NCBI GenBank assembly: GCA_038065715.1
Contig: JBBTQL010000004.1
Span: 35,693-99,692 of the forward strand
Direction of reading: 5' to 3'
DNA length: 64,000 nucleotides
From: Patescibacteria group bacterium
GTDB taxonomy: Bacteria > Patescibacteriota > Minisyncoccia > Minisyncoccales > Staskawiczbacteraceae
In this document: one piece after another, positions 22,789 to 26,726 of the stretch
How positions within the stretch are numbered: position 1 is the stretch's first letter
Layout: each line of letters starts with the position of its first letter
Notes under the pieces: model-generated
Told to the model about the DNA's origin: nothing
Seen by the model: the letters and a program-made list of their open reading frames with translations, nothing else
Databases searched by the model: none
Program-made: the position numbers and the translations under genes

Positions 22789-24039
22789 ATGAGGATAAAA
22801 GAAGCAGTTAAAAAAATATTAGGCAGAAATTTGTTGGGTTTTTATCATTATGGCATGGCTTTTTTGGGAGCTGTGATTTTTGGTTTTCCATCTAAAAATT
22901 TAACTGTTATAGGGGTTACAGGCACCAGCGGTAAATCAACTACTTCTGATTTTATCACAAGAATTTTAGAAGAACCCTTCGACGGGGCCCAGGGCAGGTC
23001 TGGCAATAAGGTGGCTTCAATTTCAACAATAAGATTTAAAATTGCAGAAAAAGAATGGGAAAATAAATATAAAATGACAATGCCCGGCCGTTTTGTTATT
23101 CAAAAGTTTTTAAGGCAGGCAAAAAAAGCAGGATGCAAATTTGTGGTTTTAGAAGTTACTTCGCAAGGCATTGAACAATATCGCCATAAATTTATAAATT
23201 TTGATACAGCTGTTTTTACTAATTTGTCGCCAGAGCATATTGAAAGCCATGGCAGTTTTGAAAATTACAGAAACGCAAAACTAAAACTATTTCGAGCAAC
23301 AAAAAACATCCATATTATAAATACTGATGACGCAAATTCAAAATATTTTTGGAATATTCCGGCAAAACAAAAAATTGGATTTTCAGCCAAAGATGCGCAA
23401 AACGCTAATTTAAAATTAAATTTAATTGGAGACTTTAATATTTTAAACGCCTTAGCGGCAATTTCTGCGGCAAAGGCATATGGCATTGATTTTAGCATTT
23501 GTAAAAGGGCGCTGGAAAAGGCCAAAGGAATTTCTGGCAGAATGGAAGTGATTCAAAAAGAGCCATTCAAAGTTATTGTTGACTATGCTCATACTCCAGA
23601 ACAACTCGAAAGTGTCTATAAGGCACTTTCTCAAAACCCAAAACCTCAAACTCCAAACCCCAAACTTATTTGTGTGCTTGGAAGTTGCGGCGGGGGAAGG
23701 GATAAATGGAAAAGGACTGTTTTAGGAGAAATTGCAAATAAATATTGCGACAAAATATTTATAACCAATGAAGATCCATATGATGAAAACCCCAACCAGA
23801 TTTTATCTGAAATAAAATCTGGAATTATCAATTCTCAATTTCCAATTTCCAATTTATATGAAATTTTAGACCGTAAAGAGGCAATTAAAACTGCAATAAA
23901 ATTAGCAAAATCAGATGATATTGTTATAATCACTGGCAAGGGTTCAGAATCCTGGATGTGCATAGCAAACGGTAAAAAAATCCCCTGGGACGACAGGCAA
24001 ATCGCTAAAGATGCGTTGGGGCTCCAAACCTTGACATAG
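22789..24039 (+). CDS. murE: Mur ligase, MurE-like UDP-MurNAc-tripeptide synthetase
   Basis: GVTGTSGKSTT P-loop, DYAHTP and GSCGGGRDKWKR. Carries in-frame repeat inserts at 22975-23004, 23630-23667 and 23835-23856. Confidence 0.8.
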   Translation: MRIKEAVKKILGRNLLGFYHYGMAFLGAVIFGFPSKNLTVIGVTGTSGKSTTSDFITRILEEPFDGAQGRSGNKVASISTIRFKIAEKEWENKYKMTMPGRFVIQKFLRQAKKAGCKFVVLEVTSQGIEQYRHKFINFDTAVFTNLSPEHIESHGSFENYRNAKLKLFRATKNIHIINTDDANSKYFWNIPAKQKIGFSAKDAQNANLKLNLIGDFNILNALAAISAAKAYGIDFSICKRALEKAKGISGRMEVIQKEPFKVIVDYAHTPEQLESVYKALSQNPKPQTPNPKLICVLGSCGGGRDKWKRTVLGEIANKYCDKIFITNEDPYDENPNQILSEIKSGIINSQFPISNLYEILDRKEAIKTAIKLAKSDDIVIITGKGSESWMCIANGKKIPWDDRQIAKDALGLQTLT

Positions 24040-24059
24040 ATGCTTTAATATGATATGAT
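24031..24059 (+). promoter_or_regulatory. Promoter of DGR-1 target gene
   Basis: TTGACA, 17 nt (TAGATGCTTTAATATGA), then TATGAT, with a TG-extended -10. Nearly identical to the promoter at 61997-62025. Confidence 0.65.
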
Positions 24060-24097
24060 TAATAATATAGCTCTTTTTTATTGTTACTTGCGAAATT

Positions 24098-24153
24098 GGC
24101 AGTTATAGCCAAAAGCTACTGAATTATATCGGTATCTTCTGGCTATGACTGCT
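24098..24153 (+). promoter_or_regulatory. Conserved 5' leader hairpin of DGR target mRNA (copy 1)
   Basis: 13-bp stem GGCAGTTATAGCC / GGCTATGACTGCT. The same stem occurs at 62068-62150 with A-U to G-U compatible changes and a larger loop. Confidence 0.6.
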
Positions 24154-24218
24154 ATGTCGGTACGTCAAGCAGAAACCAGCCTGTCATAATTGGCGGGCAA
24201 AACAGAAAGGAGATTGTC

Positions 24219-24878
24219 ATGGCTGTGCAAGTCATTGGCGATCTATATGTGGAGTTGGATGGGAAGTTGGCGGAGATTAAGCGGCAAATGAGGCAGCAGG
24301 GAGGCTATCCGTTTGACCCGGAGAAATTAAACAAGTTTCTCCAACTAGCTGTCGAGGGCAGGTTCAACGACAACCGGTGCTGGTGCGAGAAGGAAGGAGT
24401 GATCTACTTTGAGGTCACCTCTGACGGCACGACTGGACCCCAATGGATTGAGCGTCTGGAGAAGAAGGGTATCCAGCTCTCCAAGTGGGCCAAGGACGTC
24501 CTGCTGTCTCCGGACTTCAAGCCGACCAACGGCGTGACCACCGAGATCGCTGTCCTCAAGGGCGCGCTTTTTATGGACAATGATCGCATCACGTCTAAGA
24601 TCCGCGCTGAGGCCGACAAGCGCAAGCTCGTCAAGCCCGAAGCCGAACTCGGTTGCCTTATCCGCGACACGTTCACGGACGAGGAAATCGAAGCCATGGG
24701 TCTTGTGTGGATCGTGGCGTTCCACGAGCCCATCAAGGACTCTGACGGCGATCCGACGTTGCTCGGTGCGCGTCGCCTTGGCGATGGCCGTTGGCTGCGC
24801 GCGTGCTGCGGCCTGCCCGACCGCAGGTGGCTTCGCGACCGTGGCTTTGCCTTCGCCGTCTCGCAAGTATCTTCGTAA
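24219..24878 (+). CDS. DGR-1 variable (target) protein with C-terminal VR, no signal peptide
   Basis: 219 aa; RBS AAAGGAG before the ATG. Sampled 60-nt lines are about 60-65% GC versus about 30% for the genome. The C-terminal 42 codons are the VR. Confidence 0.85.
   Translation: MAVQVIGDLYVELDGKLAEIKRQMRQQGGYPFDPEKLNKFLQLAVEGRFNDNRCWCEKEGVIYFEVTSDGTTGPQWIERLEKKGIQLSKWAKDVLLSPDFKPTNGVTTEIAVLKGALFMDNDRITSKIRAEADKRKLVKPEAELGCLIRDTFTDEEIEAMGLVWIVAFHEPIKDSDGDPTLLGARRLGDGRWLRACCGLPDRRWLRDRGFAFAVSQVSS
24741..24866 (+). repeat. Variable repeat VR-1
   Basis: Gap-free 126-nt alignment with TR-1. There are 21 substitutions opposite TR adenines and one C/G difference; the last 25 nt are identical. Confidence 0.9.
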
Positions 24879-24974
24879 GTCCTTTGGGCTTGAGCCTTTG
24901 CTCTAGCCCTTGGATCCTCTGCCCTTTGCATTTCCTCACGGACTTGCACTGGGCAGATTTTTTTTGCTAAAATA

Positions 24975-25334: not shown

Positions 25335-25339
25335 TCTCT

Positions 25340-25699
25340 TCATTTCTCTCCTTGCTTAGGAGAGTTTTGTTTAATAATTTGTCCCGACCAACCACCGAGC
25401 ATTTTGCCAATTTCATCTAGTTTCAATGATAGAGCAATATATTTTTTGTTATCCAATGATTTTGTTTCCCAAAGAATCATTAAAAATATTTTTAACGTAT
25501 CGACCTTTCTAATTGCTAAACGTACATAGGACAATTTTTCTGATTGCCCAAGAAAACTTGCAGTCACTATTGCCTCTATTGCTTCAACAAAAAGTTTATC
25601 AATTTTTTCACCAAGAGAATATTTATGTATTTTTGGTATAATTAAATAGTGTTGGTACCAAAAAAGATAAGCTTCTTTCAACTTTTGCAAAACAGGCAA
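25340..25699 (-). CDS. avd: DGR accessory variability determinant (Avd-like four-helix-bundle protein)
   Basis: About 119 aa from a TTG start (LPVLQKLKEAYLFWYQ...). Homologous to the 122-aa ORF at 63274-63642. Helical pattern with C-terminal IGKMLGGW. The track ORF extends further upstream (25834), probably spuriously. Confidence 0.8.
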   Translation of the reverse strand: MPVLQKLKEAYLFWYQHYLIIPKIHKYSLGEKIDKLFVEAIEAIVTASFLGQSEKLSYVRLAIRKVDTLKIFLMILWETKSLDNKKYIALSLKLDEIGKMLGGWSGQIIKQNSPKQGEK

Positions 25700-25705
25700 C
25701 AGTCT

Positions 25706-25715
25706 GGGGGGGGGG
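25706..25715. repeat. Homopolymeric G10 tract in the avd/RT divergent gap
   Basis: G10 lies 6 nt from the avd TTG start and 24 nt before the RT ATG. The paralogous position in DGR-2 has G7. Confidence 0.9.
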
Positions 25716-25739
25716 ATTAAAAGCTGAGTTATTTTGATT

Positions 25740-26726
25740 ATGAAAATTACTTTGCAACATAAATACGAAGACATCATAAGCGTTGAGAATATTTTGGAAG
25801 CATGGCAAGAGTTTCTTCTCGGCAAAAGAAACAAGCCCGATGTTCAAGAATTTTCTCTCTGTCTGATGAATAATGTTTTTAATTTGCACAACGACTTATC
25901 CAATCATACCTACAAACACGGAGGCTATCAACAATTTAAAATTAACGACCCAAAGCCAAGAACAATCCACAAAGCCAGCGTAAAAGACAGATTATTGCAC
26001 CACGCAGTATATCGTATATTATACCCGTTTTTTGATAAAAAGTTTATTGCAGACTCTTTCTCTTGCAGAAACAACAAAGGCACTCATAAAGCATTAAACA
26101 AATTCAGGGAGTTCAGCTATATTGTTTCCAAAAACAACACAAACACCTGCTGGATTTTAAAATGCGACATAAAAAAGTTTTTTGCCAGCGTTGATCAGCA
26201 GATACTAATTAAAATTTTAGAAAAATATATTTCAGAAAAAGATATTATCAACTTTCTAAAAGAAATAATTTTTGGTTTTAAACCCAATGGTTTGCCTCTC
26301 GGTAATTTGACTTCCCAGTTGTTCGCAAATGTTTATCTGAATGAATTTGACCAGTTTGTAAAACACAAATTGAAAGTAAAATACTATATTAGGTATGCCG
26401 ATGACTTCGTAATTTTATCAGAGAACAAAAATTATTTAAAAAACATAATTCCAGAGCTAAAATATTATTTAAAAAACAATTTAAAACTGGAAATTCATCC
26501 AAATAAAATTTTTATTAAAACATTGAATTCTGGCGTTGATTTTTTAGGCTGGATTAATTTTACAGATCATAGAGTTTTAAGGACAAAAACTAAAAACAGA
26601 ATATTAAAGAGAATAAAAAATAATTCAAGTATTGAAACATTAAATTCTTATTCGGGTTTGTTAAAACATGGAAATATGAACAAAATGATTAAGAAATTAT
26701 TTAAGGAAACGGAGATTGCTTTTTAA
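25740..26726 (+). CDS. DGR reverse transcriptase
   Basis: 328 aa from ATG 25740. LPLGNLTSQLFANVYLNEFD (SQ-type motif characteristic of DGR RTs) and RYADDFVIL (YxDD box). Confidence 0.9.
   Translation: MKITLQHKYEDIISVENILEAWQEFLLGKRNKPDVQEFSLCLMNNVFNLHNDLSNHTYKHGGYQQFKINDPKPRTIHKASVKDRLLHHAVYRILYPFFDKKFIADSFSCRNNKGTHKALNKFREFSYIVSKNNTNTCWILKCDIKKFFASVDQQILIKILEKYISEKDIINFLKEIIFGFKPNGLPLGNLTSQLFANVYLNEFDQFVKHKLKVKYYIRYADDFVILSENKNYLKNIIPELKYYLKNNLKLEIHPNKIFIKTLNSGVDFLGWINFTDHRVLRTKTKNRILKRIKNNSSIETLNSYSGLLKHGNMNKMIKKLFKETEIAF

Follow-up and report, generated by a model that had tools for sequence, protein, structure and literature searches.

The 64,000-nt stretch of Patescibacteria DNA analysed here (the window; contig JBBTQL010000004.1, positions 35,693 to 99,692) contains a chromosomal diversity-generating retroelement (DGR), designated DGR-1, whose template repeat (TR) is preceded by a conserved, covarying RNA domain. 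Taking the evidence as a whole, we consider it highly probable that this element is a DGR of the candidate phyla radiation (CPR, or Patescibacteria) clade in which the upstream RNA supplies two duplexes around the TR, and in which a simple-sequence tract between the avd and reverse transcriptase (RT) genes serves as a switch. A wider proposal, that the whole Patescibacteria DGR clade has a permuted RNA, a slippage switch that turns hypermutation on and off stochastically and GC-rich targets as its signature, is put forward tentatively, as a real possibility. The locus had been called a complete DGR in a preliminary description made from the sequence. That headline is correct and names an already known kind of element, and it came without the RNA upstream of the TR, the repeats that separate avd from RT, the conserved leader on the target mRNA, or the recognition that the GC-richness of the target is a clade-wide property of synonymous sites. 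These clade-wide features (RNA domain, repeat tract, GC-rich target and leader) are what the present analysis adds, and they were followed through a comparison that took in ~150 related loci in two sets, one anchored on the target gene and one on the RT gene.

To our knowledge, DGRs are the only natural systems of targeted protein hypermutation in prokaryotes, and we know of little about their mechanism that does not come from one phage element. CPR bacteria have an unusually high density of DGRs. Should the additional features described below prove functionless, the locus would be an ordinary representative of a clade already known.

A complete diversity-generating retroelement on a Patescibacteria chromosome

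A repeat search of the window paired positions 24741-24874 with 25208-25341 as a 134-nt direct repeat of 82% identity. The preliminary description had aligned the variable repeat VR-1 (24741-24866) without gaps to TR-1; the ungapped match and the VR-1 coordinates stand, whereas TR-1 had been placed 1 nt off and lies at 25208-25333. The offset of 468 used earlier gives a meaningless alignment, and 467 is the correct one. Over these 126 nt there are 22 mismatches, 21 of them where the TR has adenine, as had been counted, and the adenine bias holds after computational alignment: with 30 adenines in the 126-nt TR, the hypergeometric probability that 21 or more of the 22 mismatches would fall on A is 7e-16. 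The changes at TR adenines (10 A>G, 8 A>C and 3 A>T) all affect codon positions 1 or 2 and diversify 21 of the 30 adenines, while 95 of the 96 non-A positions match VR-1; the sole exception is a C>G difference at 25225 that adjoins a mutated adenine. VR-1 comprises the last 42 full codons of the target open reading frame (ORF), and TR-1 translated in the same frame reads SDGDPNLLSANRNDDGHWLNAYYDKPDNRWNRDNGFAFAVSQ, in agreement with the earlier reading. The 3'-terminal 25 nt are invariant, as had been noted (24842-24866 is identical to 25309-25333), and past them the homology runs on for 8 nt, to 24874/25341, interrupted by two differences at bases other than A (C>G and C>A); this divergent tail resembles an initiation of mutagenic homing (IMH/IMH*) pair. 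A search of both strands of the window revealed no other VR for TR-1. The hairpin AAGTCC-TTT-GGGCTT that had been described 3' of VR-1 is present and proves weak, with six pairs including one G-T and a 3-nt loop; in the alignment, relatives instead have a GC-rich hairpin with a 4-nt loop ~30 nt past the target stop codon.

The protein components lead to the same assignment. The RT ORF contains the reported LGxLTSQLFANVY and YADD motifs, the SQ-type RT motif region LGNLTSQLFANVY being present alongside YADD, and it matches RVT_1 (1.1e-24) and PHROG 1423 (1e-102). In a PDB sequence search its best match is the Bordetella phage bRT (8ub7; E 7.6e-41, residues 10-294), with group II intron and retron-type RTs at ~2e-17, so that the enzyme is nearer to bRT than to either of those groups. 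A different origin, in which the RT would come from a group II intron, a retron or a defence system and the repeat would be coincidental, would agree with the name of its top NCBIfam match, a group II intron RT model that scores 144.6 bits against a cut-off of 300. This origin is nonetheless vanishingly improbable, as bRT outscores group II RTs by 143 to 66 bits in the PDB search, an avd gene adjoins, the repeat is adenine-specific at P ~7e-16, and the cassette shows no intron RNA domains, no maturase or endonuclease extension and no Rfam match. The minus-strand ORF described as Avd-like is indeed Avd, with a TTG start codon: its product matches Pfam bAvd (1.4e-11; 45.3 bits against a cut-off of 40) and PHROG 3206, 'Avd protein of DGR' (3.4e-15). 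One point weighs against the assignment, namely that the match to NCBIfam DivGenRetAVD (6.5e-18) scores 65 bits, below the curated cut-off of 80. PDB sequence searches gave nothing useful for Avd or for the target.

The cassette is thus complete, as had been claimed, with an adenine-specific TR/VR pair, a DGR-type RT and Avd, and on every count that could be tested the locus is a chromosomal DGR of the Patescibacteria clade. Adenine specificity extends to its relatives: in 45 loci with an adjacent TR, 751 of 800 mismatches fall at A (in a count whose extension scoring favoured A), and RT-anchored loci show 606 TR/VR mismatches at A and 28 at other bases.

The RNA domain upstream of the template repeat

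The distance from VR to TR is nearly constant in the 45 related loci (mostly 440-580 nt), and the spacer between them has a fixed order in relatives, with the target terminator followed by an extended -10 box and then by a conserved block of ~225 nt that abuts the TR (positions in DGR-1 are given in Table 1). RNAalifold applied to 37 sequences of this block predicts 51 pairs, 42 of which have compensatory changes. In an alignment of the whole RNA (34 sequences), the 68 specified pairs of eight helices are 94.6% paired, as compared with 84.1% in shuffled and 38-54% in slid controls, and 51 of the 68 pairs are changed on both sides, against 30 +/- 2.8 in shuffles; none of 500 shuffles reaches the observed number. 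The single window sequence of the domain (W1) folds with z = -5.4. A further pairing suggested by RNAalifold, between a conserved 5' GGUGAA and a UUCGCC inside the TR, is 97% pairable, has no compensatory change and does no better than shuffles. A covariance model, R1, which spans 107 positions and covers the core of the P3 domain only, detects DGR-1 (104.9 bits) and DGR-2 (88.7 bits, 63047-63155), a second cassette described below, and nothing else in the window. Among the RT-anchored metagenome loci, 53 extend far enough upstream for a comparison, and R1 matches 52 of these, with its matches lying a median of 541 nt ahead of the RT start. The targets of these RT-anchored loci fall into at least two BLAST clusters, and because loci from different target clusters carry the domain, as do DGR-1 and DGR-2 with their non-alignable targets, it belongs to the RT/Avd machinery rather than to one target family. 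Searches of Rfam 15, whose families include motifs RT-1 to RT-19 (Weinberg et al. 2017), gave no credible match for the domain at E values up to 5 in 24000-25800, and in five related loci returned nothing but tRNA.

The best-understood counterpart of this RNA is that of the Bordetella phage element. Cryo-electron microscopy of the latter showed that one strand of the spacer (Sp) downstream of the TR forms a template:primer duplex with the 3' end of the TR and, 2 nt further on, an avd:Sp stop duplex upstream of the TR that is followed by a short stem-loop; an Avd-binding stem-loop lies directly after the TR (preprint 10.1101/2023.10.23.563531). In DGR-1, a near-invariant strand upstream of the TR, AAAAGAAGA-UACUUG-GCGUGGGAAACU (25095-25121), pairs on both sides of the TR. 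Its 3' part forms helix P3 with the 12 nt located just upstream of the TR, and 10 of these 12 pairs are compensatory. Its A-rich 5' part (25095-25103) pairs over a long range with the 3' flank of the TR (25337-25345), and the eight pairs of this duplex are 94.8% paired, as compared with 51-64% when slid; four have both partners changed, where shuffles give 1.1 +/- 0.8 and none of 500 reaches four, and the changes include a G-C to A-U exchange at the site where TAA replaces TGA as the stop codon of avd. Two adjacent duplexes therefore bracket the TR, as in the RNA of BPP-1-type DGRs, where they involve the TR 3' end and a segment 5' of the TR. The VR/TR homology (25208-25341) fits between them, its last 5 nt overlapping the downstream duplex. 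A structured spacer downstream of the TR, as in BPP-1-type elements, was not found: after the TR there is only a hairpin with a U-tract, and then antisense avd. The stem of this hairpin (helix 8) covaries in relatives, with five pairs changed on both sides, and it occupies the place of the Avd-binding stem-loop of the Bordetella element. Because a covarying hairpin and U-tract, and thereafter only antisense avd, follow the TR, the TR RNA is most likely a self-contained transcript of ~390 nt, and we infer by analogy that it is a circular permutation of the Bordetella DGR RNA design.

The proposed mechanism can be outlined as follows. Transcription of the target gene would begin at a strong promoter, run through the structured leader and stop at the gene's own terminator. 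A separate RNA of ~390 nt would start at the extended -10 box, near 24980, and end within 25346-25374, and would consist of the 225-nt structured domain, the TR and the terminal hairpin. The strand at 25095-25121 would form both neighbouring duplexes and loop out the TR between them. By comparison with Bordetella, the duplex with 25337-25345 would act as the template:primer duplex, priming from an internal adenosine near 25103, and the P3 duplex (25193-25204) as a stop for synthesis of complementary DNA (cDNA). RT and Avd would copy the TR, inserting random nucleotides opposite its adenines, and the resulting cDNA would take the place of the VR.

Several observations weigh against this model. 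The minimum free energy fold of the single sequence W1 is partly unlike the comparative structure. The long-range duplex has few independent changes (two to three sequences per pair), and it is A/U-rich and overlaps the avd stop and C-terminal codons, which partly explains its conservation. The priming nucleotide and the stop function are assigned by analogy with Bordetella only. It is conceivable, if rather unlikely, that the 5' domain is real without being a permuted equivalent of Sp, and that it acts in RNA stability, in processing or in the recruitment of RT and Avd; priming would then draw on sequence downstream of the TR, the arrangement of the Bordetella phage, and take place on a read-through transcript that runs antisense to avd. 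The helices alone are established and the functions given to them are proposals, the RT gene lies downstream on the same strand so that read-through is conceivable, and Handa et al. found putative Avd-binding stem-loops and upstream/downstream stop duplexes in 207 of 278 Avd-containing DGRs from a set of phyla to which CPR belongs. That survey of DGR RNA elements covered 40 nt upstream and 100 nt downstream of the TR; because only 40 nt upstream were covered, it could not have seen a domain located further upstream of the TR. What speaks against downstream priming is that the 12 nt preceding the TR pair with sequence still further upstream through mostly compensatory pairs, that the covarying hairpin and U-tract follow within 5 nt of the TR and give way to antisense avd coding sequence, and that the VR/TR homology fits between the two duplexes. 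If the permuted arrangement is true, its altered connectivity with the same two-duplex geometry would reveal which features of DGR RNAs are essential, and it would give engineers a compact and self-contained RNA template to work with.

The repeat tract between avd and RT, and the activity of the cassette

A run of ten guanines (25706-25715) separates the divergent avd and RT genes, with the avd TTG start 6 nt away on one side and the RT ATG 24 nt away on the other. Its length differs among assemblies of this one population (G9, G10 or G11), and four of the five comparison loci are otherwise identical to the window up to the tract, the G11 contig having been compared at the tract only. Across the RT-anchored set, G7-G12 occupies the position in 55 of 73 loci and dinucleotide repeats do so in five more, against a background of eight such runs in 290 kb. 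In the target-anchored set the tract is present in 24 of 41 loci (G8-G12), and several others have (TTGG)n, (TTGA)n or (GGCT)n there. Contingency loci are known in which poly-G lies in a promoter spacer, as in Neisseria porA, or TA repeats lie between divergent promoters, as in Haemophilus hifA/hifB. Because conserved position, varied repeat types and length variation are the hallmark of contingency loci, the tract is likely a slippage-prone, stochastic switch on the expression of avd, RT or both.

Two further observations concern this position. Assembly ERZ1292635 (loci L001 and L084) breaks its contigs at the poly-G tract, and the overlapping ends read G9 and G11, which fits either length heterogeneity within the sample or homopolymer error. 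In a sub-clade with tetranucleotide repeats (L029, L041, L020, L074 and L061/L007), the repeats are read through in the avd frame (as TNQP, NQSI or SQPA) with an ATG or GTG just upstream; L061 has three repeat units and avd in frame, and L007 has two units and avd out of frame. In these loci the arrangement looks like a translational switch.

How the poly-G tract itself would act is less clear, and a number of results weigh against its role as a switch. A frameshift switch was considered and is unsupported: the counts for an upstream ATG are 15 of 47 loci in frame, 21 in the -1 frame and 13 in the -2 frame, approximately as expected by chance. This ATG is complementary to a conserved histidine codon of the RT gene. 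In 36 of the 47 loci an in-frame start codon directly follows the tract, and in most loci a TTG start stands there. A promoter-spacer model is plausible for relatives with TAGAAT-like hexamers past the tract, and in this window no good -10 box follows it. In addition, length calls for homopolymers can be wrong in short reads. The tract might be neutral, a compositional accident or an artefact of assembly or sequencing without a regulatory role, as would suit its error-prone sequence class, the one assembly that breaks exactly there and the lack of a firm fit to either the frameshift or the promoter-spacer mechanism. We regard neutrality as very unlikely. The 55 of 73 independent loci compare with 0.003 expected per 120-nt window (P ~1e-120), the records come from many independent studies and assemblies, judging by their names, and di- or tetranucleotide repeats substitute for poly-G in other loci. 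Moreover, the sole other G/C run of at least 8 in the window sits in the promoter spacer of a gene with a signal-like N-terminus. If the repeat is indeed a switch on avd or RT, it would be the first hint known to us of stochastic regulation of a DGR by cells, and it bears on how hosts limit the cost of hypermutation.

The other run just mentioned is a G8 in the 17-nt spacer of a TTGACA...TATTAT promoter at 34531-34570, ~100 nt upstream of a 564-aa ORF (34665-36359) whose product starts with a hydrophobic, signal-like N-terminus. This arrangement looks like a classical phase-variable promoter.

The preliminary description held that the cassette is or recently was active. It may be, with its parts intact and 21 of the 30 TR adenines diversified; however, the VR protein sequence is identical in all eight contigs, which come from several assemblies of one well. 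It is possible, though we think it the less probable case, that an intact-looking DGR is now silent or rarely fires, its VR having been diversified in the past and kept by selection. Such silence would account for the identity of the VR in contigs that include strain variants differing by 3 SNPs elsewhere and for the 90%-identity cluster of the target protein, which has a single member; a majority of cells might also be switched OFF, provided that the poly-G tract acts as a switch. On the other side, all parts appear intact (an RT with YADD, Avd, a TR with 30 adenines and an RNA domain at full model score), assemblies represent a consensus in which minority variants are hidden, and the genome retains another intact cassette.

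Target genes, the second cassette and comparison with known systems

The 219-aa target had been described as GC-rich and without recognisable signals, and both statements hold. It is 58% GC, as compared with 29% for RT, 31% for avd and 34% for the window, and the maximum 19-residue Kyte-Doolittle hydropathy of its product is 0.69, so that no transmembrane (TM) helix or signal-peptide core is apparent. Structure prediction, which the preliminary description had proposed, yields a C-type-lectin fold, with a helical N-terminal module predicted to precede the lectin-fold domain. Searches of Pfam, NCBIfam and PHROG assign no family to the target of either cassette. The suggestion that the signal-less protein may act inside the cell is consistent with its hydropathy and is not new, having already been reported for CPR DGRs: their targets typically lack TM or signal segments, and whether this is real was left open (Roux et al. 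2021, PMC8144416). The target family comprises 1647 homologues that are 60-80% identical, and among the matches listed their names are Patescibacteria/CPR lineages or an unclassified 'bacterium'. Its variable columns cluster in the VR and in a modular N-terminal segment of 50 residues. Residues 1-50 occur in at least three unrelated helical versions on one conserved lectin-like core (alignment A3), which suggests module swapping.

The composition of the target is a clade-wide, synonymous-site property. The GC content at third codon positions (GC3) is 0.78 in the non-VR part of the DGR-1 target, 0.33 in RT and 0.28-0.30 in the murE-like, NIF3 and leuS genes; the DGR-2 target, though unrelated in sequence, has a GC3 of 0.68. 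Over 28 target-anchored loci, targets average a GC3 of 0.72 and RTs one of 0.44, and the two values do not correlate (r = 0.07); over 28 RT-anchored loci with other targets the means are 0.66 vs 0.39, the target being higher in 27 of 28. Avoidance of adenine was rejected as the cause because both adenine (0.12) and thymine (0.16) are depleted at third positions relative to RT (0.25 and 0.31); the A/T ratio at these positions is similar to that of RT, and the strongest enrichment is that of C. The idea that the target came recently from a GC-rich donor is likewise unsupported, as the RT and avd genes of the cassette are host-like and target GC3 is independent of RT GC3. At synonymous sites, targets resemble one another more than their composition would lead one to expect (0.50 vs 0.33; for RT, 0.31 vs 0.25), and because of this excess, partly independent histories or selection at the nucleotide level are possible. 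Candidate origins are biased gene conversion coupled to repeated homing, selection on the nucleotide sequence, and the swapping of target modules.

The target genes also share their upstream region. The promoter is kept in DGR-2 (61998-62026) and across related loci (alignment A6), and the leaders of DGR-1 and DGR-2 (62030-62201) are ~80% identical, whereas the target proteins cannot be aligned. The leader is ~150 nt long in both cassettes, the motif lies upstream of nearly all members of the target family, and an 18-bp hairpin within it is 97.5% paired in 38 loci, with 10 compensatory pairs and 29-49% pairing in slid controls. The DGR-1 leader also includes a 14-codon upstream ORF (24144-24188), and an Rfam search of the leader gave no match. 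The leader is possibly a cis-regulatory RNA. In relatives (loci L004-L081), extra hairpins further down the leader contain CCUCC, which is anti-Shine-Dalgarno-like, beside the ribosome-binding site, and these suggest translational control. The GC3 anomaly and the leader provide simple markers for DGR targets in AT-rich genomes.

DGR-2 shares its promoter, leader, RNA domain, reverse avd gene and poly-G tract with DGR-1, and all 21 mismatches within VR2 lie at TR2 adenines. DGR-1 is located between murE-like ligase and NIF3-like genes, and DGR-2 follows leuS. An origin from phage was rejected in view of these neighbours and of the finding of only 3 target relatives in 2.9 million viral contigs. 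Identical DGR-1 proteins are encoded by contigs from Hainich aquifer well H43 and by one metagenome-assembled genome labelled Patescibacteria group bacterium. Species-representative genomes contain 276 target relatives, from which 80 loci were kept, nearly all labelled Patescibacteria/CPR. In the relatives L064, L019, L027 and L067/L030 the target or the entire cassette is present twice, either a few kb apart or on a single contig, and the copies in L064 carry G8 and G9 tracts. Elsewhere in the window, the only Rfam match at gathering score is a tmRNA gene (38053-38403, minus strand, 112 bits). A GC-rich palindromic element of ~42 nt, TCCCGAC...GTCGGGA, is present in four copies (8226-8300, 21287-21330, 41147-41221 and, in reverse, 61450-61498) in a genome that is otherwise AT-rich; one of these copies falls within the leuS ORF, where it is read through in frame.

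Table 1. Positions of the DGR-1 and DGR-2 features in the window
Feature	Position	Strand	Basis or comment
Promoter of target gene, TTGACA-17 nt-TATGAT with TG extension	24031..24059	+	Best site in promoter scan, 11/12 matches
Structured 5' leader of target mRNA	24066..24218	+	Core hairpin ~24100-24151 (GTTATAGCCA...TGGCTATGAC)
Target (variable protein) gene, 219 aa	24219..24878	+	Predicted helical N-terminus and C-type-lectin-fold domain
VR-1, variable region	24741..24866	+	Repeat and ungapped comparison; homology to TR up to 24874
Small hairpin downstream of VR-1	24877..24891	+	Read from sequence; weak
Intrinsic terminator of target, CTGCCC...GGGCAG and T8	24919..24965	+	Sequence; equivalent stem and T-run in relatives
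Extended -10 box of TR RNA, TGcTAAAAT	24965..24973	+	Fits family consensus TGaTATAAT, directly before conserved RNA block
5' structured domain of TR RNA	24980..25207	+	RNAalifold, pair counts, covariance model R1
P1 helix of TR RNA	24997-25018	+	Comparative structure
P2 helix of TR RNA	25035-25082	+	Comparative structure
A-rich strand of TR RNA	25095-25103	+	Comparative structure
P3 helix	25110-25121 paired with 25193-25204	+	Encloses P3a (25124-25137) and P3b (25150-25180)
TR-1, template region	25208..25333	+	Repeat and ungapped comparison; homology to VR up to 25341
3' flank of TR, TCTTCATTT	25337..25345	+	Partner of A-rich strand 25095-25103; overlaps avd stop codon
Terminal hairpin CTCTCC...GGAGAG and U-tract, TR RNA terminator	25346..25374	+	Terminator scan; covarying stem
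avd, 119 aa, TTG start	25340..25699	-	Pfam bAvd, NCBIfam DivGenRetAVD, PHROG 3206
Poly-G tract, G10	25706..25715	.	Between divergent avd and RT genes; repeat survey of loci and assemblies
DGR reverse transcriptase, 328 aa	25740..26726	+	RVT_1, 8ub7, PHROG 1423
DGR-2, paralogous cassette	61998..64000	+	Runs off window end; repeats, ORFs, Avd models, R1 match
DGR-2 promoter and leader	61998-62201	+	Repeats with DGR-1
DGR-2 target	62202 (or 62142)-62822	+	ORF
VR2	62704-62813	+	Repeat comparison
DGR-2 RNA domain	62936-63164	+	R1 match, 88.7 bits
TR2	63165-63274	+	Repeat comparison
avd2	63274-63642	-	Avd models
DGR-2 G7 tract	63649-63655	.	Same context as DGR-1 tract
RT2	from 63686	+	ORF running off window

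The first survey of DGRs in CPR/Patescibacteria was reportedly that of Paul et al. 2017, which lay outside our literature search. Within the CPR DGR literature that was searched, no prior description was found of the upstream RNA domain, the avd-RT tract, the target leader or the synonymous GC contrast between target and RT, and the search returned no earlier report linking DGRs with phase variation or repeats, or structured RNA with CPR DGRs. In other respects the locus agrees with the DGRs already described from this group (Wu et al. 2018, PMC5758913, as the 'CPR set'; Roux et al. 2021, PMC8144416, as DGR clade 2), with which it shares the host group, the groundwater habitat, the cellular location, small targets without TM segments, signal peptides or known domains, unclassified VR types and the presence of several DGRs per genome.

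Compared with the phage BPP-1 DGR (mtd-avd-TR-brt), DGR-1 has the same adenine-specific transfer, an RT of equal length (328 aa), Avd, a target with a predicted C-type-lectin fold and a C-terminal VR, and an invariant 3' end with an IMH/IMH*-like divergent tail. The RNAs also correspond in having a primer-like strand, a linker, a stop-like strand, a short hairpin (P3a here) and a hairpin after the TR. Unlike BPP-1, however, DGR-1 is chromosomal, is arranged in the order target-RNA-TR-avd(reverse)-RT, and has a target outside any phage-tail context. The equivalent of Sp would lie 5' rather than 3' of the TR, the RNA appears to have its own promoter and terminator, the linker between the duplexes is 6 nt instead of 2, and there are extra 5' hairpins (P1 and P2) and a simple repeat between avd and RT. 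That repeat in turn resembles those of contingency loci in its slippage-prone sequence near divergent starts, in the varied repeat types found at one position and in its length variation within one population; it differs from them in that the genes concerned are the DGR mutagenesis machinery instead of a surface antigen, and in that its ON/OFF behaviour is a prediction.

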